A stretch of 64,000 nt of DNA from an uncultured Candidatus Binatia bacterium (GCA_965215605.1 OZ244070.1:2976001-3040000); one strand, 5' to 3'. Positions 1 through 38,432 are shown, counted from the first letter of the stretch. A program made the numbers and translations. Notes: generated by a model from the letters alone, not told the origin.

Positions 1-759
1 AACGACTGGCTCATCGAATACTGCCAGGTGGACCTGGACCGGCTGGTGGGCGTGCCGATGATCGCCACCTTCAACATCGACCATGCGGTGGCGGAGTTGG
101 AGCGTTGCAAGAAGGCGGGGCTCCGGGGAGCGCTGATATGGCAGGTGCCGCCGACGGAGTTGTCCTTCGCAACCGACCATTACGAGCGCTTCTGGGCCGC
201 CGCCCAGGAGATGGAGATGCCTGTCAGCGTCCACATCCTCACGGGCTTCGGCTATGTCAAGACGCGCTACGACCGCAAGGGCCTGGAACGCTACCGGGGC
301 AGCGTCAACCTCAAGCTGGCGGAAATCATCGACAGCCTGATGGACATCATCTTCTCGGGCGTGCTGGAACGCTACCCGCGCCTGAAGATGGTGCTGGTGG
401 AGAACGAGATCGGCTGGCTGCCCTACGTGCTGGAGCAGTGGGACTACTACTTCGACCGCCACCGCCCCACGGACCCGCTGACCATCGACAAGCTGCCCAC
501 CGAGTACTTCAACCGGCAGGTCTTCGCCACCTTCTTCAACGACGCCGTGGGCGCCCGCAACCTGGTCTGGTGGGGGCACGACAACTGCATGTGGTCCAAC
601 GACTTCCCCCACGCCAACTCCACCTGGCCGCACTCGCGGGACGTGGTGGCGCGGGACCTCGGCCACCTGCCGGACGACGTGCGCGCCAAGCTGCTGCGGG
701 ACAACGTCGCCCGGCTGTACAATATGCCGGTGCCCGCGGCCATGACCGTGGGGGTGTAA
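1..759 (+). CDS. Amidohydrolase family protein (amidohydro_2 type), 5' part outside window
   Basis: Frame open from base 1; motifs SVHILTG, GVLERYPRLKMVLVENEIGW, MWSNDFPH, DNVARLY. Confidence 0.85.
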   Translation, partial: NDWLIEYCQVDLDRLVGVPMIATFNIDHAVAELERCKKAGLRGALIWQVPPTELSFATDHYERFWAAAQEMEMPVSVHILTGFGYVKTRYDRKGLERYRGSVNLKLAEIIDSLMDIIFSGVLERYPRLKMVLVENEIGWLPYVLEQWDYYFDRHRPTDPLTIDKLPTEYFNRQVFATFFNDAVGARNLVWWGHDNCMWSNDFPHANSTWPHSRDVVARDLGHLPDDVRAKLLRDNVARLYNMPVPAAMTVGV

Positions 760-773
760 TCCCCCGCCGCCCC

Positions 774-820
774 TGGATTCCCGCTTTCACGGGAATGACG
801 GAAGGGGGGCGGGAATGACG
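774..820. repeat. REP-like palindromic element TGGATTCCCGCTTTCACGGGAATGACG plus a second half copy GCGGGAATGACG
   Basis: ATTCCCG-N6-CGGGAAT inverted repeat between convergent genes; 3' half repeated at 809-820. Confidence 0.7.
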
Positions 821-848
821 TTTTGGGGTTCGGCGGCGGCGCGCTGCG

Positions 849-2324
849 TCAGAGTGTATCCGAAGCGGCGTGAGTCTTGCGCAGGGCCAGCGAGAAGCCC
901 GGCTTGCGGATGTAGACTTGGGTGTACTCTTTCTGCTTCGTGAGTTCGTTGATGAGCCGCACCAGCGGCTGGCTCGCGCTCAGATACTCACGGGGCCGTC
1001 CGGCGTTCTGCAACTCCTCCACCGCCTCATCCCCCGCGAACACGCGTAGTATCAGCTCTTCATCGGAAATGGAGGAACTGCCGAGTTGCGCCCGCACCTC
1101 CGGCAGTGTCGGCTCCGGCTGCTGCCAGCCTTCCCAGTCCTTGGCCCGGGGCCGGCCGAGGATGCGGTCCTTGACGTCGGGGTCCATGAGCTCGGCGCCT
1201 TCCCGGCCCCAGATGCCCAGGGCGTACTGGATGGACTGGTCCGAGACCTGCTTGTAGCGTTCGCCGAGGATGATGTTGAAGGCCGCCTGGGTGCCGACGA
1301 ACTGGGACAGCGGCGTCACCATGATGGGATAGCCCCACTCGGCGCGTATCCGCGCGGCCTCCTCCAGCGCCGCCGGCAGCTTGTCCTCCATACCCACCAG
1401 GCGGAGCTGGTGCACGAAGTTGGAGATCATGCCGCCGGGCACCTGGTGGGCGTAGACGGACTGGTCGAAGGCCGCGGGCGCGCCCATCGGCAGCCGGTCC
1501 CGTTTGGCGACGAAGGTGAAGTGTTCCTTTACGGGCTTCAGCACCTCCTCGTCCACCGGCACCGTGTAACCCAGGGCCCGGAGGTTCTGCGCCATGTTGA
1601 AGACCGAAGGCTGGGCCGAGCCGTTGGCCAGAGGCGGCACGCCGGTGTGGATGGTGGTCATGCCGAGCTTGATGGCCTCGATGTAGTTGAGCGGCGCCAG
1701 TCCGTTGTTGCAGTGGGCGTGGAACTCCACCGGCGTGTCGCCGACGTTCTCCAGCACGATGGGCACCAGGGTCCGCGTGCGCTCTGGAGTGAGCAGGCCG
1801 CCCACGTCCTTGAAGCAGATGCGGTAGGGATTCATGGCCGCGGCCTCCCGGGCCTTCCGCGCGTAGTATTCGTCGGTGTGTCTGGGCGACTCCGAGTAGA
1901 TCAGGTTCACGACCGCGTCCACGCCCAGCCTGCCCAGCTCGTCCACGTCGTCCTTGAACACGGTGTAGTCGTTCCAGGGATTCGACGTGCGGGTCAGCCG
2001 GATGCCGCTGTCCACCACGTGCTGGACCACGAGCCGCGCCACCGCCGTGGGCTTCTTCTCCAGCCCGCCCTTCACGCCCCCGTGAAGCCGGAGCGGGGTG
2101 TTGCGCGCGCGCCGGGCACCCTCCCGCAGCCAGTGCCAAGGGTCCTCCTTGTGCTCGCGCACGTACTTCTTGATCATGGTGGCGCTGAAGAACTCCATGG
2201 ACTCGAAGCCCGCCTCGTCCATGCGCTCGATGGCTTCGAGCATGGCCGCGGTCTTCATGTTGAAAGCCCAGAGGCTCTGGTTGCCGTCGCGCAGCGTGGT
2301 GTCCACGAATCTAACGTCGCTCAT
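849..2324 (-). CDS. Pyruvate/oxaloacetate carboxyltransferase-like protein (OadA/PycB/transcarboxylase 5S type, no biotinyl domain), copy C
   Basis: True start MSDVRFVDTTLRDGNQSL at 2324 with GAGGAG RBS; DRE-TIM motif RDGNQS, ICFKDVGG, HAH metal ligands, HQVPGGMISN, GYPIMVTPLSQFVG. Confidence 0.88.
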   Translation of the reverse strand: MSDVRFVDTTLRDGNQSLWAFNMKTAAMLEAIERMDEAGFESMEFFSATMIKKYVREHKEDPWHWLREGARRARNTPLRLHGGVKGGLEKKPTAVARLVVQHVVDSGIRLTRTSNPWNDYTVFKDDVDELGRLGVDAVVNLIYSESPRHTDEYYARKAREAAAMNPYRICFKDVGGLLTPERTRTLVPIVLENVGDTPVEFHAHCNNGLAPLNYIEAIKLGMTTIHTGVPPLANGSAQPSVFNMAQNLRALGYTVPVDEEVLKPVKEHFTFVAKRDRLPMGAPAAFDQSVYAHQVPGGMISNFVHQLRLVGMEDKLPAALEEAARIRAEWGYPIMVTPLSQFVGTQAAFNIILGERYKQVSDQSIQYALGIWGREGAELMDPDVKDRILGRPRAKDWEGWQQPEPTLPEVRAQLGSSSISDEELILRVFAGDEAVEELQNAGRPREYLSASQPLVRLINELTKQKEYTQVYIRKPGFSLALRKTHAASDTL

Positions 2325-2332
2325 GGATCTCC

Positions 2333-3820
2333 TCAGGCGGCGGCCTCGTCCGCCGCGTCTCCGTCGGCGTTCCGTCCCAGGGTGAGGGAGAAGCCGGGCT
2401 TGCGGATGTAGACCTGGGTGTATTCCTGCTGCCGGGTGAGCTCGTTGACGAGCCGCACCAGCGGCTGGCTCGCGCTCAGGTACTCCCGGGGCCGGCCGGC
2501 GTTCTGCAGCGCCTCCACCGCCTCGTCCCCCGCGTACACCCGCATGATCAGTTCCTCGTCGGACATGGACGGGCCACCGAGCTGCGCCCGGACCTCCTCG
2601 AGCGACGGGTCGGGCTGCTCCCAGTTCTCCCAGGCCCTGGCCCGCGGCCGCCCCAGGATGCGGTCCTTCACGTCCGGGTCCATGTACTCGGCGCCCTGCC
2701 GGCCCCAGATGCCCAGGGCGTACTGGATGGACTGGTCGGTGACCTGCTTGTAGCGCTCGCCCATGATGACGTTGATGGCCGCCTGGGTGCCGACGAACTG
2801 GGACAGCGGCGTCACCATGATGGGATAGCCCCACTCGGCACGCACACGCGCGGCCTCCTCCAGCGCCGCCGGCAGCTTGTCCTCCATGCCCACCATGCGG
2901 AGCTGGTGCACGAAGTTGGAGATCATGCCGCCGGGCACCTGGTGGGCATAGACGGACTGGTCGAAGGCCGCGGGCGCGCCCATGGGCAGCCCGTCCCTTT
3001 TGGCCACGAAGGTGAAATGCTCCCGCACCGGCTTGAGCGCTTCCTCGTCCACCTCTACCGTGTGGCCCATGGCGCGCACGTTCCTGAGCATGTTGAAGAT
3101 CGAGGGCTGGGCCGAACCGTTGGCCAGGGGCGGCACGCTGGTGTGGATGGTGGTCATGCCGAGCTTGATGGCTTCCAGGTAGTTGAGCGGCGCCAGCCCG
3201 TTGTTGCAGTGGGCGTGGAACTCCACCGGGATGTCGCCGATGTTTTCCAGCACGATGGGCACCAGCGTGCGGGTGCGTTCCGGAGTCAGCATTCCGCCCA
3301 CGTCCTTGAAGCAGATGCGGTAGGGCTTCAGGGCGGCGGCTTCCCGGGCCTTCTGGGCGTAGTACTCGTCGGTGTGCCGCGGCGATACCGAGTAGATGAT
3401 GTTCGCCACGGCATCCATGCCGAGCTCGCGCAGGTCGTCCACCTCCTGCTTGAACACCGAGTAGTCGTTCCACGGGTTGGAGTTGCGCGTCAGACGGATG
3501 CCGTTGTCCACCAGGTGACTGACCACCAGCTTGGCCACCGACGTGGGCTTCTTCTCCAGCCCGCCCCGGATGCTGCCGTGCATCCGCAGCGGGGTGTTGC
3601 GGGCGCGCCGTGTGCCTTCCCGGATCCAGCGCCACGGGTTCTCCTTGTGCTCGCGCACGTACTTCTTGATCATGGTGGCGCTGAAGAACTCCATGGACTC
3701 GAAGCCCGCCCGGTCCATGCCCTCGATGGCCTCCAGCATGGCCCCGGTCCTCATGTTGTAGGCCCACAGGCTCTGGTTGCCGTCCCGCAGCGTGGTGTCC
3801 ACGAAAGTGACGTCGCTCAT
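2333..3820 (-). CDS. Pyruvate/oxaloacetate carboxyltransferase-like protein, copy B
   Basis: 495 aa; same motifs as copy C; no MKM biotinylation motif. Confidence 0.88.
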   Translation of the reverse strand: MSDVTFVDTTLRDGNQSLWAYNMRTGAMLEAIEGMDRAGFESMEFFSATMIKKYVREHKENPWRWIREGTRRARNTPLRMHGSIRGGLEKKPTSVAKLVVSHLVDNGIRLTRNSNPWNDYSVFKQEVDDLRELGMDAVANIIYSVSPRHTDEYYAQKAREAAALKPYRICFKDVGGMLTPERTRTLVPIVLENIGDIPVEFHAHCNNGLAPLNYLEAIKLGMTTIHTSVPPLANGSAQPSIFNMLRNVRAMGHTVEVDEEALKPVREHFTFVAKRDGLPMGAPAAFDQSVYAHQVPGGMISNFVHQLRMVGMEDKLPAALEEAARVRAEWGYPIMVTPLSQFVGTQAAINVIMGERYKQVTDQSIQYALGIWGRQGAEYMDPDVKDRILGRPRARAWENWEQPDPSLEEVRAQLGGPSMSDEELIMRVYAGDEAVEALQNAGRPREYLSASQPLVRLVNELTRQQEYTQVYIRKPGFSLTLGRNADGDAADEAAA

Positions 3821-3830
3821 GCGTTCGTCC

Positions 3831-5318
3831 TCAGACCGCGGCCCCGCCGGCCGTGTCTCCGTTGGCGCTCCGTCCCAGGGTGAGGGAGAACCCCGGCTTG
3901 CGGATGTACACCTGGGTGTATTCCTTCTGTTTGGTCAGCTCGTTGATGAGCCGCACCAGCGGCTGCCGCGCGCTCAGGTATTCCCGCGGCCGGCCGGACT
4001 CCATCATGGTCTTGACCTCGTCCACGCCGGCGTAGACCCGCAGTACCAGCTCCTCGTCCGAGATCGAGGGTCCGCCCAACTGGGACCGGAGCTCCGCCAG
4101 CGACGGCTCGGGCTGCTCCCATTCGGTCCACGCCTTGGCCCGGGGCCGGCCCAGGATCTTGTCCTTGACGTCGGGGTCCATGAGTTCGGCGCCCTCGCGG
4201 CCCCAGATGCCCAGGGCGTACTGGATGGACTGGTCCGCCACCTCCTTGTAGCGCTCTCCGAGGATGACGTTGAAGGCCGCTTGGGTGCCCACGAACTGGG
4301 ACAGGGGCGTCACCATGATGGGGTAGCCCCACTCGGCGCGCACCCGGGCGGCCTCCTCCAGGGCCGCCGGCAGCTTGTCCTCCATGCCCACGAGCTTGAG
4401 CTGGTGCACGAAGTTGGAGATCATGCCGCCGGGCACCTGGTGCAGGTACTGCCCGTGGTTGTATTCCACGGGCTTGCCGATGGGGAGCCCGTCGCGCTTG
4501 GCCACGTAGGTGAAGTGCTCCTCCACCGGCCGCAGCGCCTCCTCGTTCACCAGTGGCGTATGGCCCGTGGCGCGGATGTTCCGCACCATGTTGAAGATGG
4601 AGGGCTGCGCCGACGCGTTGGCCAGCGGCGGCACGCTGGTGTGGATGGTGGTCATGCCGAGTTCGATGGCCTCCAGGTAGTTGAGAGGCGCCAGGCCGTT
4701 GTTGCAGTGGGCGTGGAACTCCACCGGGGTGTCGCCGATGTTCTCAAGCACCAGCGGCACCAGGGAGCGGGTGCGCTCGGGGGTGAGCAGCCCGCCCACG
4801 TCCTTGAAGCAGATGCGGTAGGGCTTGATGGCCGCGGCTTCCCGCGCCTTCTGGGCATAGTACTCGTCGGTGTGACGCGGCGACACCGAGTAGATCAGGT
4901 TCGCCACCGTCTCCATCCCCAGCTCGCGCAACCCCTTCACCTCTTCGCCGAAGACCTCGTAGTCGTTCCAGGAGTTGGAGGTGCGCGTGAGCGTGATGCC
5001 GCTGTCCACCACCTTCTGGATGATGAGCTTCAGGATCGACGCCGGCTTCTTCTCAAGCCCTCCCTTGAGTCCGCCGTGGAGCCGCAGCTCGGTCTTGCGG
5101 AGCCGCTTGGTGCCCTCCCGCAGCCACTCCCAGGGGTTCTCCTTGTGCTCCCGGACGTACTTCTTGAACATGTTGGTAACGAAGAACTCCATGGACTCGA
5201 AGCCCGCCTGGTCCATCTGCTCGGCGGTCTCCACCATGGCCGCCGTCTTCATGTTGAGCGCCCAAAGGCTCTGGTTGCCGTCCCGGAGGGTCGTATCGAT
5301 GAATCGGATCTCGCTCAT
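3831..5318 (-). CDS. Pyruvate/oxaloacetate carboxyltransferase-like protein, copy A
   Basis: Start MSEIRFIDTTLRDGNQSL at 5318 (GGAGA RBS); same motifs as copies B and C. Confidence 0.88.
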   Translation of the reverse strand: MSEIRFIDTTLRDGNQSLWALNMKTAAMVETAEQMDQAGFESMEFFVTNMFKKYVREHKENPWEWLREGTKRLRKTELRLHGGLKGGLEKKPASILKLIIQKVVDSGITLTRTSNSWNDYEVFGEEVKGLRELGMETVANLIYSVSPRHTDEYYAQKAREAAAIKPYRICFKDVGGLLTPERTRSLVPLVLENIGDTPVEFHAHCNNGLAPLNYLEAIELGMTTIHTSVPPLANASAQPSIFNMVRNIRATGHTPLVNEEALRPVEEHFTYVAKRDGLPIGKPVEYNHGQYLHQVPGGMISNFVHQLKLVGMEDKLPAALEEAARVRAEWGYPIMVTPLSQFVGTQAAFNVILGERYKEVADQSIQYALGIWGREGAELMDPDVKDKILGRPRAKAWTEWEQPEPSLAELRSQLGGPSISDEELVLRVYAGVDEVKTMMESGRPREYLSARQPLVRLINELTKQKEYTQVYIRKPGFSLTLGRSANGDTAGGAAV

Positions 5319-5459
5319 GGGGTCTCCCGAATGAAAACTGGTGCGGTGTTCCATATTGGCCGGTGTTGTTGCATACCGGCCAGTGTCAACTGCTCATAGT
5401 GGCGTGAATGCGGAAACGGGTCAAGGCGGCCCTTGAACCCCCCAGGGAAGGAATACGCG

Positions 5460-6791
5460 GTGGCAACACAGGAAACTCTTCCGGTGGAGGAACGCCTCGT
5501 CGCGCTGCTTCGGCGCCTGGGCATCGGCAAGGCCCACGTAGCGGCCTACCTGCCCGGTGACTGGAGCGGGTTGCTGGAACGGCACCCGTCGACGGTGGCG
5601 TCGCTGACCCTGATATGCCCACGGGGCATGAGGACCGACGTGCTGCGTCCCCATGCCGGGCGGCTGCTCATCGTGTCGGGCGACGGGGGCAACGTCGTGG
5701 CCGACCTGATGCGTGCGGTGGACGGGCTTCCCGGCGCCGCCCTGACCATGTTGCGGGACTACTTCAGCCCCATGTGGGCCGACGTCATGGCGGACCGCAC
5801 CGGCGAGGTCGAGTCGGCCATGCTGGATTTCCTATCGCTGCGGGACAAGGAGGGTCCGCTTCCACGCGTGCAACTCCCCGAAGGGGAGGGAGAGGAGGCC
5901 GGCGTCTCCTACACGGTGCGGGGCTCGGGGCCGCCGCTGCTGCTGTTTCCGCTGGGGTTGGCAGCTTCGCAGTGGGACCCGGTGCTGCCGGCGCTCGCCG
6001 AGCGCTATACCACCATCACCCTGGGCGGCGCGTATCTGGGCATGGTGGCGTTCCTGGAAACCCGCGGCCCCGGATACCTCCGGGCGGTGCGGGGCGTGGT
6101 GGACGAGGTCGGCCTGGAGCCCGGTCAGACCGTCCTGGAGGTGGGCTGCGGTGCCGGCACGGTGGCGCGCTGGCTGGCCCGCTACACCGGGAAGCGCAAT
6201 CCCATCGTGGGTGCGGACATCAACCACTATCTGCTTCGCGAGGCCGCGAAGCTGGCGGCGGGCGAGGGACTCGATGGCGTCATCGAGTGGCAAAGCGCCA
6301 ACGGCGAGGAGTTGCCGTTTGCCGACGGGCGGTTCGACGCCACGCTGGCCTTCACGGTCATGGAAGAGGGGGCCGCCGACGCCATGCTGGCGCAGTTCGC
6401 GCGGGTCACCCGGCCCGGCGGCAAGGTGGCGGTGATCGTCCGCTCCCTGGACATGCCCTGGTGGGTCAACCTGCAGCTGCGGCCGGAGCTCAAGCACAAG
6501 GCCCAGACTGGCTACGGCGACGTGGTGGAGGGCGGCTGCGCGGACGCGAGCCTCTACGAACGCATGGAACGGGCCGGGCTCGTGGACGTGGTCATGCTGC
6601 CGCAGTATGCCACCTACGCGTCGGGGGAGCGGCTGCAACAGCAGCAGGAACGCATGGCCAGCCGGCTGACCCCCGAGGAAGCGGGGGAGTGGCGTGATGC
6701 CATCGCCGCCGCCGGCAACCAGTTCTTCATCTCTCAGCCGTTCCACTCGGCGGTGGGAAGGGTCAAGCCGGCATCTTCGCCGGGTGGTTGA
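5460..6791 (+). CDS. Class I SAM-dependent methyltransferase fused to a degenerate alpha/beta-hydrolase-like N-terminal region
   Basis: C-terminal VLEVGCGAG, GADIN, LPFADGRFDA, RVTRPGG; N-terminal LGIGKAHV..HPSTVASLTL and GSGPPLLLF..WDPVLPALAERY; probable GTG start at 5460 after AAGGA. Confidence 0.75.
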   Translation: MATQETLPVEERLVALLRRLGIGKAHVAAYLPGDWSGLLERHPSTVASLTLICPRGMRTDVLRPHAGRLLIVSGDGGNVVADLMRAVDGLPGAALTMLRDYFSPMWADVMADRTGEVESAMLDFLSLRDKEGPLPRVQLPEGEGEEAGVSYTVRGSGPPLLLFPLGLAASQWDPVLPALAERYTTITLGGAYLGMVAFLETRGPGYLRAVRGVVDEVGLEPGQTVLEVGCGAGTVARWLARYTGKRNPIVGADINHYLLREAAKLAAGEGLDGVIEWQSANGEELPFADGRFDATLAFTVMEEGAADAMLAQFARVTRPGGKVAVIVRSLDMPWWVNLQLRPELKHKAQTGYGDVVEGGCADASLYERMERAGLVDVVMLPQYATYASGERLQQQQERMASRLTPEEAGEWRDAIAAAGNQFFISQPFHSAVGRVKPASSPGG

Positions 6792-7726
6792 CAGGCGCGT
6801 CCGGATACACCATATGCTGTGGTCGTGTCGTTATTCACCACAATAGGAAGGACACGGCGCTGTTCGTGAGCGTGTCCGCGTCGCGAAGCCGCCGGGCGGC
6901 TACCTGGGCGGCGCTTGGTCTGTCGGCGCTTCTGGTCCTGCTGACGTCCGGCCCCACTTGGTCCGCGGAAGCCGCCGTTCATCTGGAGGGCCCGAAGATA
7001 CAGGGCGGCCTGGTGCGCGGACGCGTGGCGCCGGGTTCCACCGTGAAATTCGAGGGCGAGCGGGTTCGGGTCTCGAAGGACGGCTGGTTCCTCATCGGGT
7101 TCGGGCGCGACGCGCCGCCGAAAGCCGTGCTGTCGGTGACCTTTCCGGACGGCCGCAGCCAGCACTACGGTCTGGCGGTGAAGCCCCGCAAATACCGCAT
7201 CCAGCGTATCGATGGTCTGCCGTCGCGCAAGGTGACCCCCAATGAGGAAGACCTCAGGCGCATCCGCAAGGAGGTCGCCCTGGTGAGGCGGGCGCGCAAG
7301 GTGGACGACGCGCGGACGGACTTCCTCGGCGGCTTTCACTGGCCGGTGAAGGGCAGGATCAGCGGCGTCTACGGCTCCCAGCGCGTCCTGAACGGCGAGC
7401 CGCGCCGGCCCCACTACGGCATCGACATCGCCGCGCCCAAGGGCACCCGGGTGATGGCACCCGCCGCCGGCGTGGTCACCCTCGTCCACCGCGACATGTA
7501 CTTCTCCGGCGGCACCATGATCGTCGACCACGGCCACGGCCTCTCGTCCGCGTTCCTCCACCTGTCGCGCATCCTCGTGAAGAAAGGCCAGCGGGTGAAG
7601 CAGGGACAGCCCATCGCCGAGGTCGGCTCCACCGGCCGCTCCACCGGCCCTCATCTCGACTGGCGCATCAACCTGTTCGGCCGCCGCCTGGACGCGGCGC
7701 TACTGGTGGGGCCGATGCCCAAGTGA
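6788..7726 (+). CDS. M23 family metallopeptidase, exported (true start probably ~6860-6870)
   Basis: HYGIDIAA, DHGHG, STGPHLDW motifs; hydrophobic signal segment. Confidence 0.9.
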   Translation: MTGASGYTICCGRVVIHHNRKDTALFVSVSASRSRRAATWAALGLSALLVLLTSGPTWSAEAAVHLEGPKIQGGLVRGRVAPGSTVKFEGERVRVSKDGWFLIGFGRDAPPKAVLSVTFPDGRSQHYGLAVKPRKYRIQRIDGLPSRKVTPNEEDLRRIRKEVALVRRARKVDDARTDFLGGFHWPVKGRISGVYGSQRVLNGEPRRPHYGIDIAAPKGTRVMAPAAGVVTLVHRDMYFSGGTMIVDHGHGLSSAFLHLSRILVKKGQRVKQGQPIAEVGSTGRSTGPHLDWRINLFGRRLDAALLVGPMPK

Positions 7727-7765
7727 AATTTGGAAGGTGACGAGAGGAAGCAGTTGCGTTACACG

Positions 7766-8233
7766 CTATAAATGGAGCGCTTTGGTCAGCGGGTCTCCAC
7801 ACTTGATCAGCACGGTAACCTTTCGTTGTCCTCGCAGTTGGATTTTTCTGGAGCGAAGCACCTTGAGGTCGTTTCTGTGGATGGTCTTGCCGTGCGCCAG
7901 GACCGGCACGAAGTGGAACGATATTCCCTCCGGGAGCCAGTTGTGAGCCGAGTCCGTGCCCCCCTCAAGTTGTTCCAACACCTCAGCGGCTTTCAGTCCA
8001 CCGCTCTTCAACTCGATGGGCGCTATCCAGGTGGCGTCGCCTCTTTCTCCGAGGAAGAGGTAGTCACACCGTTTCTGTTGGCGCGGGAGTTCCAGCCCGT
8101 CGCAGTCCATGTCCACCAAGAGACGTGTCTCCGGTGCGCCCTTCAGGTCCACCCGGCATCTGTCCTTGTTGCAGTGAATGGCATGACAGCAACCGGGAAC
8201 GCGGCCGGCCACCGCCGCCACCGTTCCACTCAT
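7766..8233 (-). CDS. Hypothetical protein, possible PD-(D/E)xK nuclease fold
   Basis: 155 aa; KRCDYLF...APIELKSG resembles D..ExK; start overlaps the ATPase stop (ATGA). Confidence 0.55.
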   Translation of the reverse strand: MSGTVAAVAGRVPGCCHAIHCNKDRCRVDLKGAPETRLLVDMDCDGLELPRQQKRCDYLFLGERGDATWIAPIELKSGGLKAAEVLEQLEGGTDSAHNWLPEGISFHFVPVLAHGKTIHRNDLKVLRSRKIQLRGQRKVTVLIKCGDPLTKALHL

Positions 8234-9759
8234 CGGGGGTTACTGTCCTGGATGCGATTGAAAATGCTTGCGCTCTCGTTGTACAGCGCCTCACTGACAG
8301 CATCGTAGTCGGTTGGATAGAGGCCGGTTTCCTCGTCCAGTTTCACTTCTTCCACCACCGATCCCCTCGGGCGCCGCTTCGGCTTGAACATCCATGCCCC
8401 CACGTCCTCAGGGCGCAGGGCGACCTTGGCGTCGGCGGCTTTCTTGCCCCCCGCATCGGACAGTGCAGATCGCCGCACGATATTGGCGAGCTCCTCCAGC
8501 ACCCATTCGCTGTGCGTCGTAACGATCACGCGGACGCCTGCGCGGACCAGCAGCGCGAGTTGACGCGTGAACTCGACCTGCATGGCCGGATGCAAGTGAG
8601 ATTCCGGCTCCTCGATCATCAGCACGCTGTCGGGTCCGACCCTGTGGCGCAAGTACAGAACCACCGGTGCCAGTTCCGATACCATGGACGAAGTGTTCAT
8701 GAGGGGCAGGTCGTCTTTCCAACCTTTTGGACGATACGCGAAGTGCGGATAACCGGTGACTTCAGACCGGTTGACCAGTACATGACCGCCCAGGACTGCG
8801 TCTTCGATACTTTTCGCGAGATCTTGTCGAGGCGCGCGGGCCCAGTAAAGTCGCGACACATTCCGTCGCGACGGACGGTCGAGTTCGATCAACTGTTGCA
8901 GGAAATCCGCCAAGACACCTGAAAGCATGGGCGTGCGCGCGGCTGGACGCAAGCCTGTCATGGCTGCGCTTCCGATCGTGGCGCTTACCACCGCACTGTG
9001 GGCATGCATGACGCCCGTCCGGTCGGCAGGAAGGTAATAGCCGTCGAGATGCAGCGGACCAAGCACGTACGGGAGGATATGGTCGGTGAGATTGATGAGC
9101 AACTGAGTCAGTCGCCATTCCCGATCGGGTTCTCCTGGCTCGGCGACACGAGTCGGTTCGTTGCCAAAGGAGCCGAGATCGAGAGTGATTTCATCCCGTT
9201 CGGTTATCGGAATGGCCATGTCTTCGGATAGGGTCGCCGTATATTCCGCGTCTCGCCCGCCGAGCAACAACCGGTGTTCGGCCATCCCCGAATCATCGGG
9301 GAGCCGTTTTCGCAACACGACGTTCGCGAAGTCGTGGCTTCCCTTGCGGATCAGCCCGCGGAGATCGCGGATGCCGAAGCATCGGACGATCTCAAGGGCC
9401 AAGCGGTCACCGTGGGATTTGATTGCGGTACGAACAGCATCCGTGATTCCACCGGGTAGGACAACGCGTCCTCCGAAACCTGGCTTCGCCATGTCTTCAG
9501 CGGTCCGCTTTGCGAATGCGGCCAACGTGTTGACGGTTTTCCGAGGCAGTTCGGGACGCTCCTCGAATACTCGCCAATGGCGGAACCCGGCGCTGAAATG
9601 CCGGTGCAGCGCATATATCAGGATCGCCAGATAGGATTTGCCGGTGTTGCTCGGTCCGACGAATACGGTAAGCGGGCGCAGGTCCACTCTGGCTTCGACG
9701 ATAGGGCCGAAATCCGCTACTCTAACTTCGAGAGTGTCTCGTGGAGGTCGATCCTTCAT
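8230..9759 (-). CDS. ABC-type AAA ATPase (AAA_15/AAA_21 class)
   Basis: N-terminal DFGPI, Walker A GPSNTGKS, YLPADR, signature-like SSMVSE, Walker B/D-loop LMIEEPESHLHP, H-loop VTTHS. Confidence 0.88.
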   Translation of the reverse strand: MKDRPPRDTLEVRVADFGPIVEARVDLRPLTVFVGPSNTGKSYLAILIYALHRHFSAGFRHWRVFEERPELPRKTVNTLAAFAKRTAEDMAKPGFGGRVVLPGGITDAVRTAIKSHGDRLALEIVRCFGIRDLRGLIRKGSHDFANVVLRKRLPDDSGMAEHRLLLGGRDAEYTATLSEDMAIPITERDEITLDLGSFGNEPTRVAEPGEPDREWRLTQLLINLTDHILPYVLGPLHLDGYYLPADRTGVMHAHSAVVSATIGSAAMTGLRPAARTPMLSGVLADFLQQLIELDRPSRRNVSRLYWARAPRQDLAKSIEDAVLGGHVLVNRSEVTGYPHFAYRPKGWKDDLPLMNTSSMVSELAPVVLYLRHRVGPDSVLMIEEPESHLHPAMQVEFTRQLALLVRAGVRVIVTTHSEWVLEELANIVRRSALSDAGGKKAADAKVALRPEDVGAWMFKPKRRPRGSVVEEVKLDEETGLYPTDYDAVSEALYNESASIFNRIQDSNPR

Positions 9760-9902
9760 GCCTTGGCTACACTCTTCCAGCAATCACACGGGCTCATCGG
9801 ATGCCTTCCCTGATGGTAGATCACCGGAGCGGGAGCGCAAATCCAGCCCAATCTGCAGGGGGATGCGCGACCGCACCGGATCACGGGCGGCAGATGACGG
9901 AG

Positions 9903-11135
9903 CTAACCGGTAGCCTGCCGCTTCGGGTTTGCCTCCGCGGCAGCGTGGGCCTTCTGGAAATCTTCCTCGTCGAAGTTGTAGAGCCCGGCGCCGCCCATGA
10001 AGATGGCCGCGGCGGTCGCCCGTGACACGTTGTTCAGGAGGTTGTTGGAGACGTTGGGGAAGTTCGAGTCGAAGTGCGGGTAGTCGGTGGAGATGCACAT
10101 GCGGTCCGCGCCGATGAGCTCGGCGGTGCCGGCGATCTCGGGCTCGCTCCCTTCCACCGCGGCCCAGCAGTTCCGCTGGAAGTACTCCTTGGGGGTCAGC
10201 GACAGGTACGGCGCGTGGGAGTCGCGATAGTTGGCGTAGTCCCACTCGATGCGCGTCAGTATGCCCGGCACCCAGGAGTTCTGGGCTTCCAGGTAGCCCA
10301 CCCGCAGCTTGGGATGGAACTCGAAGACGCCGCCGATGATCATGGCGATGAGCGCCTGCTGCATCTCGATCCAGTGGCTGGCGACGTGGCGGTAGAACCG
10401 GTTCTCGCCGTACAGATCGTTCATGTGGGAGTTCCACGCGCCGGTGCCCTCATGGAAGCACCAGGACACGTCCAGCTCCTCGTGCAGGCTGTAGAGAGGG
10501 TCCCAGTAGTTGGAGTGCCAGAAGTGGCCGTTGATCATGTTGGGCCGGATGAACGACGCCACCGCCCCGAGCTCCTCCACCGCCCGCTTCAACTCGTGGC
10601 ACGCCAGGTTCACGTCGTGCAGCGGCAGCATGGCGGCGAACTTCATGCGGTCCGGGGAGTACTGGCAGAAGTCGTGGATCCAGTCGTTGTACGCACGACT
10701 CAGGGCGTGCGACATGTGCGGGTCCATGTCGTCCCGCGCCAGCAGCCCCAGCCCGCCGGTGGGGAAGAGCACGGCGATGTCGATGCCTTCCATCTCCATC
10801 CCCATGACCTGGGCTTCCTCGTCGTATCCCCGCTCGATGGCGAAGTCCAGGCGCCCTGTGTCGGCGATGCGGGAGGCGGACAATACCCCGGTGGCGGCCC
10901 CCATGACGGGCCCCGTGGCCTTGGACGACGCGGCCTTCTTGCGGTGTTGCTGCAGCTCCGAGTCCGCGCCGGTAGGCAGCCCGTCGATGGTCCAGGTGCG
11001 CCGGCTGATCTTTCCCTTGCCGTCCACCGCCCAGGTCACGCGGTGCTTGAAATCGGGGTCCAGGTATTTCTCCAGCAGGTCGCCGGGTTCCTGAATGTGC
11101 ATGTCGCTGTCAACGAAACGCAGGCCGTCTTTCAT
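9903..11135 (-). CDS. Amidohydrolase family protein
   Basis: MKDGLRFVDSDMH start with AGGAGG RBS; VLFPT, AYNDW, FHEG, STDYPH. Confidence 0.88.
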   Translation of the reverse strand: MKDGLRFVDSDMHIQEPGDLLEKYLDPDFKHRVTWAVDGKGKISRRTWTIDGLPTGADSELQQHRKKAASSKATGPVMGAATGVLSASRIADTGRLDFAIERGYDEEAQVMGMEMEGIDIAVLFPTGGLGLLARDDMDPHMSHALSRAYNDWIHDFCQYSPDRMKFAAMLPLHDVNLACHELKRAVEELGAVASFIRPNMINGHFWHSNYWDPLYSLHEELDVSWCFHEGTGAWNSHMNDLYGENRFYRHVASHWIEMQQALIAMIIGGVFEFHPKLRVGYLEAQNSWVPGILTRIEWDYANYRDSHAPYLSLTPKEYFQRNCWAAVEGSEPEIAGTAELIGADRMCISTDYPHFDSNFPNVSNNLLNNVSRATAAAIFMGGAGLYNFDEEDFQKAHAAAEANPKRQATG

Positions 11136-11601
11136 TTCGTTCCTCCTTGTCAGGGCGGGCCGGGGGCCAAGCGTATCCACGCGCCCTTTGCGCCGCATCG
11201 ATACGAACGACACTACCGGAAGTGGCGGCTCGCGGTCAACGACAGCCGGGCGCGGCGGTCTCTCCGTTGGCCACGCGTATGTCACGGTAGCAGACAGTGG
11301 CTACGACCGCCCAGCATGCTCTGATCGATCCGTTCACCAAGAGGATCGCCGGTGACAGCAAGCGAAGGACAGGCGCACGACGGGCCAGACCGCGATCTTG
11401 TCGTCGCCGGCAGGCGCGTTGAGTGAGCTTAGCTCGGGCTGGTCAGCTTCCAAGGTTCGGTTCTCCGGCTCTTTGTCCCTTTAGACTTTCCGCTGGCTCC
11501 GTGCAATAAGGAACGGTCAATTTATATATCGAGGGGCGGCGGCCCGGCACGGCGTGGCCGCCGGTCGTCGTTGCAACTTCACGAGTCTGAGGGACCTCAT
11601 T

Positions 11602-12962: not shown

Positions 12963-13355
12963 TCAAGCGGCCATGGTGGCTACGTCGTATCGCGGGATAT
13001 GGTGGTCGCGGGTGACGAGTATCAATCCCTCGGCTTGGGCCTGGGCGATCAGAAAACGGTCGAACGGGTCACGGTGGTGCATCGGCAGTTTGCCCGCCTG
13101 CTCGGCATGATGGAAGGTCAACGGCAGGTGGGTGAAGCGCTTTTCTTCAACCATCGCCGACAGGTTGTCCGGCGCGGTCATGGTCCCCTTCGCCCGCTTG
13201 ACGGTGACCTCCCAACCGGTAATGGCGCTGACGAAGACGTCGTTTCCGGAGTCGGCGATCGCCGAACGGGCCGCCTCGGTCAGCCGCGCGACATCGGTGA
13301 CCCACCATATGAATGCGTGGGTGTCCAGCAACAGCCGCACGACGTCAGTCCTCAT
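12963..13355 (-). CDS. vapC: PIN-domain (VapC) toxin
   Basis: LLLDTHAFIWW, VSAITGWE, HRDPFDRFLIAQA, LVTRD; start may be GTG at 13340. Confidence 0.9.
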   Translation of the reverse strand: MRTDVVRLLLDTHAFIWWVTDVARLTEAARSAIADSGNDVFVSAITGWEVTVKRAKGTMTAPDNLSAMVEEKRFTHLPLTFHHAEQAGKLPMHHRDPFDRFLIAQAQAEGLILVTRDHHIPRYDVATMAA

Positions 13356-13599
13356 CCGGGAAGATCTTCGAGTTCTCGATCAGGTCCATGAGTTCCTCGT
13401 CGGGCTCGTCAAAGTCGGGGGCCATCCATATATGCCCTTCCAGCCCACCAGGCTTTCGTTCCTCCGCCGGTCGTTTGTACGGCTTCAGCACAAGATACGG
13501 TTCGCCGGCCTTGGCGATCACGATCTCCTCGCCTCCCCAAGCCAACTTGCCCAACCTGGAAAGTTGGGACTTCGCCTCGTGCATGTTCACCTGTTTCAT
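13345..13599 (-). CDS. Phd/YefM family antitoxin
   Basis: VNMHEAKSQLSRL..GEEIVIAKAGEP, RKPGGLEGHIWMAPDFDEP. Confidence 0.88.
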   Translation of the reverse strand: MKQVNMHEAKSQLSRLGKLAWGGEEIVIAKAGEPYLVLKPYKRPAEERKPGGLEGHIWMAPDFDEPDEELMDLIENSKIFPDED

Positions 13600-14365: not shown

Positions 14366-15034
14366 TCCTGCCTGCGCTTCCTCTTCGCCCTCCCGCGCTA
14401 CTCGGAAGACCTGTACTTCGCCCTTGAAAGCGATACGGACCGCTATGATCTGCGTGCTTGGCTGAAGGCCATTCGCGCGGAGTTGTCCCGCGAAGGCTAC
14501 AGCGTCGGTCTCACCGTTCGGGACCACAATCCGGTTCATAGCGCGTTCGTGCGCTTCCCGGGGGTTTTGTACGACGCGGGCCTCTCACCCCATCGAGAAG
14601 AAAGCCTTGCCGTCAGGATCGAGGTCGATACGCGCGCTCCGGCCGGGGCCGTCCTGGAGACCCACCTCGTGCGGCGCCACGTGACGCTACGGCTGCGTCA
14701 CCACGACCGCGCGTCGCTGCTCGCCGGCAAGCTGCACGCGATCTTGCAGCGTCCCTATGCCAAGGGAAGGGACCTGTACGACCTGATCTGGTACATGAGC
14801 GATCCGACCTGGCCCGCGCCCAATCTCAGGCTGCTCAACGCGGCCTTGCGGCAGACTCATTGGTCGGGCGGAGTGCTGCGGGACAACACCTGGCGGGAGA
14901 CGATGATCCAGCGTCTCGACGCCTTGGCGTGGGACCGGGCGGCCGCGGATGCGCGCCCGTTCCTGGAGCGGGAAGAGGATGTGGAGTTGCTGACTCGGGA
15001 GAATGCCGTGCGGCTTTTGACCGAGCACCCGTGA
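14366..15034 (+). pseudogene. 5'-truncated AbiEii-type nucleotidyltransferase
   Basis: In-frame reading upstream of the ORF gives CLRFLFALPRYSEDLYF, preceded by TGA at 14363; C-terminal AGKLHAILQR..KGRDLYDL. Confidence 0.75.
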
Positions 15035-29804: not shown

Positions 29805-29986
29805 GATATCGATACGTCCGGATTTGGGCCGCGGGCGGGCGATTCCGCGTACCGGAGTCAAGGCGTTTCTAGCACAGGACCGGACCGGAGCAAAACCTGG
29901 AGCGGAGACCGGCCGTCCTTGACAGTTTCGGGAACCCCGTGTCAATGAGAACACTTCACCGACCCATACGAAACAGGAGGAAAGCG

Positions 29987-30727
29987 ATGAGCATCAATAC
30001 CGGAACGGTGGATATCGCCGCCGAAGACGGCAAGTCCATGGGCCTTTACGTGGCCGCGCCCGAGGGCGGCGGCAAGAAGCCGGTGCTGCTGGTGATCATG
30101 GAGATCTTTGGCGTGAACGCCCACATGAAGGAAGTCACCGAGCGTTTCGCGGGTGAGGGCTACGTGGCCATCTCCCCGGATCTCTACTATCGGCTGGACG
30201 AGCGGATCATTCCCAACACCGACCGGGACGGCGCCTTTGCCGCCCGCGGCACCCTCTATGACACCAAGGTCATCGAGGACCTGAACCGCGCCATCGCCTA
30301 CGCCAAGGGACGCGACGACGTGGATCCGGACCGGGTGGGGATCATCGGCTACTGCTTCGGCGGCCGGGTGTCGTGGATGGCGGCGTGCAACTGCCCGGGC
30401 CTGGCGGCCAGCAGCCTGTACTACGGCGGCCAGATCGCCGGCGGCCAGCGGGGCGAGAAGAGCCCGGTGGAGCCGGTGACCCAGGGGAAGAACATCAAGA
30501 TACCGATGCAGTGCGTCTGGGGCGGGCAGGACCAGGGCATCCCGCAGGAGGCGCGCGACAGCATCGAGGGGACGCTGAAAGCCAACAACGTGGACTACGA
30601 GTGGCACCTCTACGAGGAGGCGGGCCACGCCTTCTTCTGCGACGACCGCCCGAGCTATCACGAGGCCTCGGCCAAGGATGTCTGGCCCAAGACCCTGGCA
30701 TTCCTGGGCAGGCACCTGAAAGCGTAA
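29987..30727 (+). CDS. Dienelactone hydrolase family protein
   Basis: MEIFGVN, GYCFGG nucleophile, AGHAFF; AGGAGG RBS. Confidence 0.92.
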   Translation: MSINTGTVDIAAEDGKSMGLYVAAPEGGGKKPVLLVIMEIFGVNAHMKEVTERFAGEGYVAISPDLYYRLDERIIPNTDRDGAFAARGTLYDTKVIEDLNRAIAYAKGRDDVDPDRVGIIGYCFGGRVSWMAACNCPGLAASSLYYGGQIAGGQRGEKSPVEPVTQGKNIKIPMQCVWGGQDQGIPQEARDSIEGTLKANNVDYEWHLYEEAGHAFFCDDRPSYHEASAKDVWPKTLAFLGRHLKA

Positions 30728-30755
30728 GAGACCACCGTTTCAAGGAGGCACGTCA

Positions 30756-31592
30756 ATGGCAACCAAAGAATACCAGACGGTCCTGGTGGAGAAGGAGGAC
30801 GGCATCACCTGGGTGATCCTGAACCGTCCGGAAAAGCGGAACGCCATGAGCCCGCAGCTCCACTTCGACATGTACGACGCGGTCACCGAAGCCGAGGGAG
30901 ATCCCGAGACCCAGGTGATGGTCATCACCGGCGCCGGCAATAGCTGGTGCGCCGGCATGGATCTCAAGGAATTCTTCCGCGAGGGCGACAAGAACCCCGA
31001 GTTTCAGCGGAAGGTGGGCTGGGCCAGCCAGGAATGGCGCTGGCGCAAGCTCTTCACCTTTCCGAAGCCCACCATCGCCATGGTGAACGGCTTCTGCTTC
31101 GGCGGCGCCTTCACCCCGATGATCGCCTGCGACTTCGCCATCGCGTCGGAGGACGCGCTCTTCGGCCTGTCCGAGGTGAACTGGGGCATCCTGCCCGGCG
31201 GCCTGGTGAGCCGGGTGGTGACCGACATGATGACGCTCCGCGACGGCCTGTACCATGCCATGACCGGCGACCCGTTCGACGGCAAGAAGGCGGCGGAGAT
31301 GAGGCTCGTCACCTACGCGGTGCCGGCGGACCAACTCCGGGACGAGACCGTGAAGCTTGCGAAGAAGCTCATGGAGAAGAACCCCTGGGCGCTGCGGGCC
31401 ACCAAGCAGGCCTACAAGCTGGTGCGCGGCATGGACTACTCCCAGGCCGAGGACTATCTGGCCGCCAAGGAAGCCCAGATAAAGATGCAGGACCGGGAGA
31501 GCGGCTACGACGAGGGCATCAAGCAGTTCATCGACGACAAGACCTACAAGCCGGGTTTCGGTCCCATGGCCCGGGTCAACAAGGATTCCTAG
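30756..31592 (+). CDS. p-hydroxycinnamoyl-CoA hydratase/lyase, copy 1
   Basis: NRPEKRNAMSP, AGMDLKEFFRE, GFCFGGAFTP, LSEVNWGILPGG, EDYL, YKPG. Confidence 0.88.
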   Translation: MATKEYQTVLVEKEDGITWVILNRPEKRNAMSPQLHFDMYDAVTEAEGDPETQVMVITGAGNSWCAGMDLKEFFREGDKNPEFQRKVGWASQEWRWRKLFTFPKPTIAMVNGFCFGGAFTPMIACDFAIASEDALFGLSEVNWGILPGGLVSRVVTDMMTLRDGLYHAMTGDPFDGKKAAEMRLVTYAVPADQLRDETVKLAKKLMEKNPWALRATKQAYKLVRGMDYSQAEDYLAAKEAQIKMQDRESGYDEGIKQFIDDKTYKPGFGPMARVNKDS

Positions 31593-31615
31593 CCGGATGC
31601 GGCGGAACTTGCGCC

Positions 31616-31644
31616 TTGACTCCGCCGACGCGACTGCATAGAGT
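31616..31644 (+). promoter_or_regulatory. Sigma70-like promoter upstream of hydratase/lyase copy 2
   Basis: TTGACT-N17-TAGAGT, then AAGGAGG RBS. Confidence 0.5.
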
Positions 31645-31690
31645 TGGCAGAATTTCAATCACCTGAAGGTTCCAAGGAGGTATCGTTTTA

Positions 31691-32527
31691 ATGGCGACGA
31701 AAGAATACAAGACAGTGCTGGTGGAGAAGGAGGACGGCATCACTTGGGTCATCCTCAACCGTCCGGAAAAGCGGAACGCCATGAGTCCGCAGCTCCACTT
31801 CGACATGTATGACGCGGTGACGGAATGCGAGGGGGATCCGGAAACGCAGGTCATGGTCATCACCGGCGCGGGCAATAGCTGGTGCGCCGGCCAGGACCTC
31901 CGGGAATACTTCCGCGAAGGCGACAAGAACCCGGCGCTCCGCCGGCAGGCGAGCTGGTGCAGCCAGGAATGGCGCTGGCGCAAGCTCTTCACCTTTTCCA
32001 AGCCCACCATCGCCATGGTGAACGGCTTCTGCTTCGGCGGCGCCTTCACCCCGCTGGTGGCCTGTGACTTCGCCATCGCCTCCGAGGACGCGATCTTCGG
32101 GCTGTCCGAGGTCAACTGGGGCATTCTGCCCGGCGGACTCGTGAGCCGGGTGGTCACCGACATGCTGAGCCTGCGGGACGGCCTGTACCATGCCATGACC
32201 GGCGATCCGTTCGATGGCAAGAAGGCGGCGGAGATGCGGCTGGTGAACTACGCGGTGCCGGCGGACCAGCTCCGGGACGAGACCGTGAAGCTGGCGAAGA
32301 AGCTCATGGAGAAGAACCCCTGGGCGCTGCGGGCCACCAAGCAAGCCTACAAGCTGGTGCGCAGCATGGACTATTCCCAGGCCGAGGATTATCTCGCGGC
32401 CAAGGGCGCCCAGATCAAGCTGCAGGACCGGGAGAGCGGCTACGACGAGGGGATCAAGCAGTTCATCGACGACAAGACCTACAAGCCGGGCCTGGGCCCC
32501 ATGGCCCGGGTCAACAAGGCTTCCTAG
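31691..32527 (+). CDS. p-hydroxycinnamoyl-CoA hydratase/lyase, copy 2
   Basis: Same 278-aa length and motifs as copy 1; AGQDLREYFRE. Confidence 0.88.
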   Translation: MATKEYKTVLVEKEDGITWVILNRPEKRNAMSPQLHFDMYDAVTECEGDPETQVMVITGAGNSWCAGQDLREYFREGDKNPALRRQASWCSQEWRWRKLFTFSKPTIAMVNGFCFGGAFTPLVACDFAIASEDAIFGLSEVNWGILPGGLVSRVVTDMLSLRDGLYHAMTGDPFDGKKAAEMRLVNYAVPADQLRDETVKLAKKLMEKNPWALRATKQAYKLVRSMDYSQAEDYLAAKGAQIKLQDRESGYDEGIKQFIDDKTYKPGLGPMARVNKAS

Positions 32528-32559
32528 CTCTATAGGGATACCGACGAGTGTCACGTGGA

Positions 32560-32595
32560 GGGGCTCCGGTCCGGACGGTCCCGGACCGGAGCCCC
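32560..32595. other. Perfect 15-bp GC-rich hairpin upstream of tctC
   Basis: GGGGCTCCGGTCCGG-ACGGTC-CCGGACCGGAGCCCC, no U tract. Confidence 0.7.
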
Positions 32596-32640
32596 CAACG
32601 CCGGACGACGGCAATCACTGACCCAAGGAGGGAGCAAGCG

Positions 32641-33732: not shown

Positions 33733-33746
33733 GCCATCAACCGTGT

Positions 33747-33780
33747 CCCGTTGCCGGCCGCCTCGTGGGCCGGCAACGGG
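33747..33780. other. Perfect 13-bp hairpin between tctC and tctA
   Basis: CCCGTTGCCGGCC-N8-GGCCGGCAACGGG. Confidence 0.7.
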
Positions 33781-33810
33781 TACTCCCAACCAGCTTAACG
33801 CCCACGCAGC

Positions 33811-35283: not shown

Positions 35284-35328
35284 CACACGCCGTATGACAA
35301 TCGGCGAATCGAGAGCCTGTCGAGGTTT

Positions 35329-38422: not shown

Positions 38423-38432
38423 ATGAGGCCGC

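Follow-up and report, generated by a model that had tools for sequence, protein, structure and literature searches.

The DNA analyzed here is a stretch of 64,000 nucleotides from an uncultured Candidatus Binatia bacterium (GCA_965215605.1 OZ244070.1:2976001-3040000), which is called the window below. On its minus strand, between positions 849 and 5318, it carries three complete open reading frames (ORFs) in the same orientation, coding for paralogous carboxyltransferase (CT)-like proteins of 495, 495 and 491 amino acids (aa; Table 1). They are separated by spacers of 10 bp (3821-3830) and 8 bp (2325-2332), both with a purine-rich ribosome site of the GGAG/GGA type, and this layout agrees with an earlier annotation of the DNA made by a model without database searches (the sequence-only reading), which had described three intact paralogues of about 495 aa in one operon with 8-10 bp spacers. 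The middle and downstream proteins are 84% identical, and the upstream copy shares 77-78% with the other two. Since a divergent methyltransferase-fusion gene lies on one side and a convergent Amidohydro_2 gene on the other, the operon consists of these three genes only. As that reading had also stated, Pfam finds no Biotin_lipoyl domain in any of the three copies and no biotin carrier, biotin carboxylase or OAD_beta domain in the 45 window ORFs scanned; every match of the genome to the biotin carrier, biotin carboxylase and OAD_beta families lies outside the window.

Table 1. The CT-like array and its surroundings (window positions)
Feature	Position	Strand	Evidence and remarks
CT-like paralogue 1, P0002, 495 aa, first in the operon	3831..5318	-	ORF/translation; HMGL-like and PYC_OADA; FFVTNMFKK; LRLHGG
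CT-like paralogue 2, P0001, 495 aa, middle	2333..3820	-	HMGL-like and PYC_OADA; FFSATMIKK; LRMHGS; AlphaFold model
CT-like paralogue 3, P0003, 491 aa, last gene of the operon	849..2324	-	HMGL-like and PYC_OADA; FFSATMIKK; LRLHGG
Divergent intergenic region, 114 bp	5319..5432	.	Presumed to hold the operon promoter; GGGAGA ribosome site before the ATG at 5318
Gap between the operon end and the convergent Amidohydro_2 gene, 89 bp	760..848	.	REP-like hairpin ATTCCCG-N6-CGGGAAT at 777-796
Amidohydro_2 gene, convergent, 3' part	1..759	+	Pfam; whole gene at L009:15599-16759, with an M20 peptidase gene ahead of it
Second Amidohydro_2 gene, lying 4.6 kb upstream of the operon; uncertain association	9903..11285	-	Pfam
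Divergent neighbour, 452 aa: N-terminal part of about 200 aa without family, and UbiE-like methyltransferase domain	5433..6791	+	

All three copies matched the Pfam families HMGL-like (54-60 bits; cut-off 29) and PYC_OADA (83-92 bits; cut-off 27), and their sequence matches in the PDB (phmmer) were PycB (5KS8, E 9e-60), OadA (2NX9, 5e-54) and 5S (1RQB, 2e-48). The AlphaFold model of the middle copy, P0001 (pLDDT 86.8), gave VIA Z scores of 39.7 with 5ks8_D, 39.3 with 2nx9_A and 38.7 with 1rqh, with a root mean square deviation of 3.2 over 435-444 residues, the alignment with 5ks8_D covering residues 2-447. The match to a DmpG-type aldolase was weaker and shorter (1nvm_G, Z 29.4, 323 residues), and the TIGR03217 scores of 37-48 bits against a cut-off of 286, together with the presence of a full PYC_OADA funnel, place the copies outside the DmpG/HOA-type pyruvate aldolases. 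The NCBIfam matches to PycB, OadA and 5S models were all far below cut-off, the best, PRK09282, giving 312-323 versus 402 and PRK14041 288-302 versus 734, with further matches to TIGR01108 (269-284 versus 756.5) and PRK12330 (195-201 versus 827). By fold and domains the copies thus belong to the CTs of the PycB/OadA/5S type, but to an uncharacterized subfamily; with NCBIfam scores this far below the cut-offs and the pyruvate motifs replaced, as described below, they are not ordinary members of those groups. A stand-alone CT without biotinyl domain, which the sequence-only reading had singled out, is a correct description of the copies but not an unusual one, since such CTs of about 470-500 aa are ordinary in the superfamily: NCBIfam has models of 465-467 positions, and for the solved 5S chain 1rqb_A, of 539 residues, the match to P0001 was reported for the carboxyltransferase region only (chain 25-405).

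Across 53 subfamily sequences, D13, K172, H202, H204 and T337 were invariant, as were K53 and R79, and S340 was kept in at least 90%; the HQVPGGM loop was nearly invariant and MVTPxSQ was kept. D13, K172, H202, H204, T337 and S340 map to Asp534, carboxylysine 703, His732, His734, Thr867 and Ser870 of Lactococcus lactis pyruvate carboxylase (PC), with offsets calculated from the ranges aligned in the structural comparison. In the L. lactis enzyme, pyruvate is bound by Arg606, and biotin and the methyl group of pyruvate are both contacted by Thr867 and Ser870, which lie between them (PMC9581989). The position aligned with Arg606 varies, being H, M, I or T in the ten copies of the genome described below. 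The funnel motifs HQVPGGM and MVTPxSQ serve biotin chemistry. The motifs that the earlier annotation had listed as retained are present in the copies as RDGNQS, FHAHC, FKD and VTPLS, and the segments it had described as replaced indeed read FFSATMIKK in two copies and FFVTNMFKK in the upstream one, and LRLHGG or LRMHGS. WGGATFD has become FF(S/V)xxM(I/F)KK, and QMLLRG has become TPLR(L/M)H-G with a two-residue deletion. The pyruvate-site segments therefore differ from those of pyruvate enzymes, as had been claimed, and the Arg606-aligned position is not conserved. Additionally, the differences between copies concentrate in loops 46-51, 80-85 and 113-116, which are predicted to line the pocket.

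Residues 441-485, approximately, form a tail that is specific to the clade and is predicted as a helix followed by a beta-hairpin, with a block-mean pLDDT of 53-68 over 441-490; the Hpe-like CT of Rhodococcus, introduced below, also has it. A profile-profile comparison (hhalign) paired this tail with the N-termini of AccB-type carriers at 76.5% probability (E 2e-5, 28 columns), and in alignments with PycB-type proteins that have AccB-like carriers it corresponds to the stretch in front of their linker and biotinyl domain. These matches lend modest support to a tail that resembles the AccB N-terminus, which is a better explanation than MfPC's BT-like domain: Foldseek gave 500 columns to 5ks8, but the VIA alignment reaches only residues 2-447, so the fold of the tail is not matched to that domain. 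With an AccB-N-like tail kept, the family looks like a PycB-type subunit minus its linker and biotinyl domain. The N-terminal segment of AccB mediates AccB-AccC contacts in E. coli. A predicted complex of AccC, AccB and the CT tail (380-495) scored 0.08 and 0.05 (mark 0.32) and was used neither way.

The array is genuine and old. Repeats can mis-assemble, and short-read contigs break up across this array, so that a single gene could have been falsely expanded to three. However, DNA identity between copies is 66-97% per segment of 40 codons, that is, they differ at 3-34% of bases, and for all copy pairs the synonymous divergence (dS) is 0.42-0.56 and the ratio of nonsynonymous to synonymous divergence (dN/dS) is 0.23-0.34, showing that the three copies are under purifying selection. 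The three-gene array recurs in four other, independent Binatia chromosome assemblies and as a two-gene array in a fifth (L017), giving each copy positional orthologues in other Binatia genomes, five of them for P0002. In a maximum-likelihood tree the copies cluster by position and not by genome, the middle copies with support of 100/99, and the middle and third copies form a clade without the first copies (99/97), which indicates that the duplications are older than these species. Furthermore, both inter-copy junctions are bridged, with at most one mismatch, by short contigs of runs X1 and X2, which may be the source sample; coverage gaps in runs X1, X2 and X5 are uninformative. In view of the divergence, the recurrence in relatives, the tree and the bridging contigs, we reject an assembly artefact, whose probability we regard as negligible. 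Contigs of the RNA run X17 were 90-99% alike over parts of the array; since contigs from a relative cannot show transcription of the window locus, no claim on expression is made.

The array also belongs to a larger family. The genome contains ten genes of this subfamily at eight loci, the three tandem copies and seven dispersed ones with 49-69% identity (tblastn), in addition to one canonical CT of 475 aa (L008, C1:476916; 30% identity) that also lacks a biotinyl domain. An Amidohydro_2 gene lies within 1 kb of five of the eight CT-like loci. The 4.06-Mb genome has 101 matches to Amidohydro_2 (PF04909), about one per 40 kb, which gives a random 1.45-kb segment a 9% chance of such a neighbour, and the adjacency is non-random (binomial P about 3e-4). 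This very large expansion of Amidohydro_2 parallels that of the CT-like family. The closest solved relatives of the Amidohydro_2 partners are the uncharacterized BB4693 and then the gamma-resorcylate, LigW and ACMSD decarboxylases. Other neighbours in the genome code for MmgE/PrpD, CN-hydrolase, FAD oxidoreductase, bicupin, alpha/beta-hydrolase and luciferase-like monooxygenase proteins and for transporters, and at 74 loci from other genomes the recurrent neighbours were Amidohydro_2, NMT1-like binding proteins, M20 peptidase, UbiD, MmgE/PrpD, UPF0047 and DUF423. One protein of our representative library, P0176 (481 aa), joins an Amidohydro_2 fragment (10-122) to the first 290 residues or so of a CT-like protein. 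This may be a real fusion, which would tie both families, or the result of reading two neighbouring genes as one.

The distribution of the family is patchy. At E <= 1e-120 there are ten genes here, the five sampled genomes nearest to this one have 5, 2, 4, 2 and 0, and none was found among 35 other genomes of the class searched. At least 585 relatives were confirmed by a pattern scan of species-representative genomes and, among the matches listed, they belong mainly to uncultured Binatia and 'Deltaproteobacteria' metagenome-assembled genomes, with others from SAR202 Chloroflexi and from cultured Marinobacter (M. azerbaijanicus TBZ242) and Sulfitobacter (S. faviae OXR-9). Databases label them 'oxaloacetate decarboxylase alpha subunit', 'biotin carboxyl carrier protein' or 'hypothetical protein'; none of the three labels fits and the subfamily is mis-annotated. 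Our literature searches returned nothing on this subfamily, which we call KK after its hallmark.

Several lines of evidence connect these proteins to biotin. In the representative library (50% identity), the 674-aa protein P0126 reached 669 bits against the subfamily profile. It shows the KK and TPLR motifs and the tail, and is extended by a second AccB-like N-terminal segment, a linker of Ala/Pro and a Biotin_lipoyl domain containing EVMKLFN; three sequences on five contigs make up its 90% cluster. P0143 (589 aa) is an intermediate form, also with a biotinyl domain. In addition, locus L075 is an operon of accB, accC, a CT-like gene and an Amidohydro_2 gene (284 aa) with spacers of 7-30 bp. 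The genome of the window has a single AccB of the EVMKVFN type, with AccC alongside (L010:10240-12125; G000:C1:1978240-1980125), and these are 60% and 68% identical, respectively, to those of L075. No AccA or AccD was found in the genome, and its only two Carboxyl_trans genes both lie beside another biotin component, the first (C1:2.37 Mb) adjoining a biotin carboxylase and a biotinyl domain and the second (L011) adjoining OadB and a 71-aa biotin carboxyl carrier protein (BCCP). Both crotonase-type transferases thus have biotin neighbours of their own, leaving the L010 pair without a CoA-type transferase beside it. A metagenome scan seeded with the L010 AccB yielded 80 loci, with accC after accB in 46 and at least 700 bp past accC in 32; a CT-like gene started within 500 bp of the accC end in 18 of these 32 informative loci and was present anywhere in the locus in 27 of the 80. 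Two relatives, G002 and G038, have one such AccB each, followed by accC and one CT-like gene, with a second CT-like gene elsewhere, and on a plasmid of the cultured Sulfitobacter faviae the operon, which lies next to a TRAP transporter, continues after accB-accC with a gene whose 485-aa product, labelled 'hypothetical protein', shares 55% identity with P0001. Taken together with the conserved funnel, these associations suggest that the enzymes are probably biotin-dependent.

The surroundings of the metagenome accB genes are varied. At L164:750-3624, accB is directly followed by the CT-like gene and then by an arylmalonate-decarboxylase-like gene, with TctC and a luciferase-like monooxygenase, while L162 and L163 carry UbiD, accB-accC-CT-like and a DUF35/thiolase-like pair, resembling the Hpe-type arrangement described below. 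Another layout recurs at L126, L140, L141, L144 and L148 and comprises a divergent M19 dipeptidase gene, a family-5 solute-binding protein, accB, accC and the CT-like gene, to which L126 and L148 add two ABC permeases. For some members, such a layout is a hint of a substrate that is peptide-like or derived from amino acids. Within the window's own genome, the L011 cluster (L011:7082-10320; G000:C1:1761082-1764320), with its 71-aa biotin carrier (EAMKME), OAD_beta (489 bits) and 542-aa Carboxyl_trans protein, looks like a sodium-pumping acyl-CoA decarboxylase.

Among characterized systems, the closest is the HpeCBA/XccBCA ketone carboxylase of the 4-phospho-acetophenone/4-hydroxyacetophenone pathway. 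HpeCBA is a three-component biotin enzyme homologous to XccBCA that carboxylates 4-phospho-acetophenone at the expense of one ATP, converted to ADP, and like the system proposed here it combines a separate AccB-like BCCP of about 17 kDa, an AccC-like biotin carboxylase (BC) and a stand-alone TIM-barrel CT of about 500 aa (PMC9618137). A CT on a plasmid of Rhodococcus oxybenzonivorans (L167) is 38% identical over residues 4-481 (tblastn), and its cluster, in the order dikinase, biotin/lipoyl protein, biotin carboxylase, carboxyltransferase, OB-fold protein, thiolase and phosphatase, has the layout of the Hpe pathway. This Hpe-type CT has likewise lost WGGATFD, its loop at the T-x-R segment is shortened too, and it shares the C-terminal tail, but it carries EV where the window copies have KK. 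Altogether, plasmid CTs, 35-40% identical and with the tail covered (tblastn), were found in Rhodococcus, Sphingobium, Sphingomonas bisphenolicum, Novosphingobium, Pseudomonas, Burkholderia and others. The Hpe partners (dikinase, phosphatase, OB-fold/thiolase) are not found beside the array, and no dikinase family was detected in the window ORFs scanned. In contrast to the Hpe and Xcc systems, the CT genes of the window genome are unlinked from accB-accC and multiplied to ten.

PycB of Methylobacillus flagellatus (5KS8; PMC5059739) is the best match both by sequence and by structure (28% identity over 437 residues), and shares the metal ligands and the Thr/Ser pair with the window proteins. 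It differs in having a BT-like domain of four strands, in carrying a biotinyl domain at its C-terminus and in binding pyruvate via WGGATFD and QMLLRG, whereas the window proteins end after the helix-hairpin tail, without biotinyl domain and with both motifs replaced. The 5S protein (1RQB) and the CT domain of OadA (2NX9) also have the same fold (Z 38-39) but act on pyruvate and oxaloacetate, keep the pyruvate motifs, and work with partners, 1.3S/12S or OadB/OadG, that are not linked to the subfamily. The copies are not OadA proteins, as they have no Biotin_lipoyl domain, and OadB was found in none of the 74 genome or 80 metagenome loci; the genome's own OadB lies 1.2 Mb from the array, in the cluster with its own transferase. 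Lastly, one AccA3 (BC-BCCP) serves several AccD carboxyltransferases in the mycobacterial acyl-CoA carboxylases (PMC4347857), which resembles our case in having one biotin-loading module and many alternative CT subunits. The AccD proteins are crotonase-fold CTs acting on acyl-CoAs, while those of the window are of the TIM-barrel PycB type and would share their module only by inference.

All these data make it likely, in our judgement, that the three genes code for alternative CT subunits of a three-component, biotin-dependent and ATP-driven carboxylase, whose AccB and AccC would be those encoded at L010, probably shared by all ten paralogues. AccC would carboxylate the biotin of AccB using ATP and bicarbonate, and the carboxybiotin would enter the CT funnel, where the metal site of the TIM barrel (D13, carbamylated K172, H202, H204) would stabilize the enolate of a carbonyl substrate and T337/S340 would mediate carboxyl and proton transfer. 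The remodelled pocket, with KK52-53 in place of the D of WGGATFD and TPLR79 plus the two-residue deletion in place of QMLLRG, would select non-pyruvate substrates, probably enolisable ketones or oxo compounds; with KK/R79 in the pocket, a substrate that carries an anionic group is suggested. The three tandem copies may be tuned to related substrates, and the adjacent Amidohydro_2 enzymes, which are decarboxylase/hydratase-like, would probably process the carboxylated products. The homology, the residues kept and replaced, the fusion, the operons of relatives and the copy numbers are observed, whereas the sharing of the BC-BCCP pair, the direction of the reaction, the class of substrate and the role of Amidohydro_2 are what we infer from these comparisons. 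The idea of substrate variants sharing a carrier encoded elsewhere was one of two options offered by the sequence-only reading, and it fits the BCCP fusion, the accB-accC-CT operons of relatives and the L010 pair without a CoA-type transferase. Its proposal of 2-oxo acids as substrates gained nothing specific, the closest characterized relatives carboxylating aryl methyl ketone phosphates, and its candidate for an undescribed catabolic system has an architecture that is already described: a stand-alone CT with an AccB-like BCCP and an AccC-like BC is the HpeCBA/XccBCA architecture, and the array is part of a ten-copy family. The architecture itself is thus already known, and what is new here is a CT subfamily that has multiplied and become unlinked from its probable BC-BCCP module.

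Several observations weigh against this proposal. The fused CT-biotinyl form is rare, being limited to one three-member cluster, and 14 of the 32 informative metagenome accB-accC loci have no CT-like gene directly downstream. In the window genome accB-accC adjoins none of the eight CT-like loci, and among the 74 CT-like loci from genomes it lies within 7 kb in only one; this scarcity is expected if CT genes outnumber the carrier pair, and it also means that linkage is not universal. It could also be the canonical 475-aa CT (L008) that uses the L010 pair, either alone or in addition. The low scores against the NCBIfam models for PycB, OadA and 5S count on the same side. Furthermore, the residue aligned with the D of WGGATFD has changed to Lys, and this Asp presumably lines the biotin pocket in pyruvate carboxylase.

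The scarce linkage, with no BC or BCCP beside any of the eight genome loci and just one case in 74 elsewhere, also favours our initial hypothesis, in which the carrier was lost and the proteins are biotin-independent metallo-lyases or decarboxylases whose metal site alone would, for example, remove CO2 from beta-keto or oxo acids or break C-C bonds that the Amidohydro_2 neighbours have formed. Such a role would suit copies that have no biotinyl domain, the replacement of WGGATFD and QMLLRG, the presence of ten CT copies against one AccB of matching type, and a DRE-TIM superfamily that includes aldolases and lyases, the DmpG-type aldolases matching at Z 29. However, the whole PYC_OADA funnel is conserved, with its biotin-contacting Thr/Ser and HQVPGGM loop, which counts against a plain lyase, as this would not need such a funnel, and the AccB-like tail is retained. 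We downgraded this hypothesis because of the BCCP fusion and the frequent accB-accC-CT operons, and now consider it improbable. The L011 cluster raises a different possibility, that the copies are alternative alpha subunits of a sodium-pumping decarboxylase passing CO2 from beta-keto or oxo acids to the 71-aa carrier, the OadB-type membrane subunit (L011) then decarboxylating the carboxybiotin to export Na+. The small BCCP, OAD_beta and Carboxyl_trans genes do occur in one cluster of this genome, OadA models are among the best NCBIfam matches, and CT reactions are reversible. That possibility seems very improbable to us: OadB was not detected at any of the 74 genome or 80 metagenome loci, the L011 cluster has its own CoA-type transferase, the TIGR01108 scores are less than half the cut-off, and the fusion and operon partners are of the AccB/AccC type, which implies ATP-driven carboxylation.

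A sub-hypothesis on the array itself, akin to the other option of the sequence-only reading, is that the products of the three genes would assemble into an obligate hetero-oligomeric CT core instead of acting as separate substrate variants. The 8-10 bp spacers point to tight co-transcription, all three copies are kept with positional orthology in four further genomes, and CT-CT dimers exist in solved PycB/PC entries, for example 7zz6, titled 'CT-CT dimer'. Nevertheless, the copy number of the locus varies, from three in four genomes to two in L017, and in G029 only one match with E <= 1e-120 lies close to the top-scoring place; most of the other loci retrieved, accB-accC-CT operons included, have a single CT gene, and the copies differ mainly in the pocket-lining loops. 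An obligate core is therefore unlikely, and the three copies are most simply read as substrate variants.

If alternative CT subunits do share the L010 pair, the genome may possess a hub-and-spoke carboxylase, in which one AccB-AccC module serves up to ten diversified TIM-barrel CTs, each in its own catabolic neighbourhood and often with an ACMSD/LigW-like Amidohydro_2 enzyme; we put this forward tentatively, as somewhat less than an even chance. CTs interchangeable on one ATP-driven carboxylase would extend the substrates of biotin enzymes past pyruvate, 2-oxoglutarate and aryl methyl ketone phosphates, and would account for some of the many Amidohydro_2 genes that these bacteria carry. In a hub-and-spoke system, many carbonyl compounds that are otherwise inert would be activated by ATP-driven carboxylation as a general first step, and substrates not yet known for any biotin enzyme would be defined by the KK subfamily.

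Regarding the flanks of the array, a scan of 600-5600 found no sigma-70-like promoter consensus and four terminator-like sites, a number within what shuffled sequence gives (2.7 +/- 1.7), none of them after the operon. The REP-like hairpin in the gap downstream of the operon has about 40 copies genome-wide, and metagenome contigs at 700-860 showed a word depth of 700-8500, compared to 5-80 over genes, with many loose ends. The 452-aa methyltransferase-fusion neighbour was found again beside the array in related genomes (five loci, three of them within 300 bp).

Elsewhere in the window, genes for a 517-aa AAA_15/AAA_21 ATPase and a 155-aa partner without known family (7766-9783, minus strand) lie in a stretch of lower GC (61%), and a PIN-domain gene and an AbiEii-type nucleotidyltransferase gene are found at 12963-13379 and 14366-15034; these genes look like a small defence/toxin-antitoxin islet. 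A 1027-aa protein with a weak ResIII helicase match alone is encoded at 59789-62872, in the part of the window with the lowest GC (59-62%), which may be foreign DNA. Lastly, a catabolic cluster at 29873-39628 carries genes for a dienelactone hydrolase, two enoyl-CoA hydratases, TctC/TctA/TctB, an NDP-forming acyl-CoA synthetase and a LigB-type ring-cleavage dioxygenase, and dienelactone hydrolase genes also adjoin accB at L010 and the Marinobacter CT-like gene (L081).

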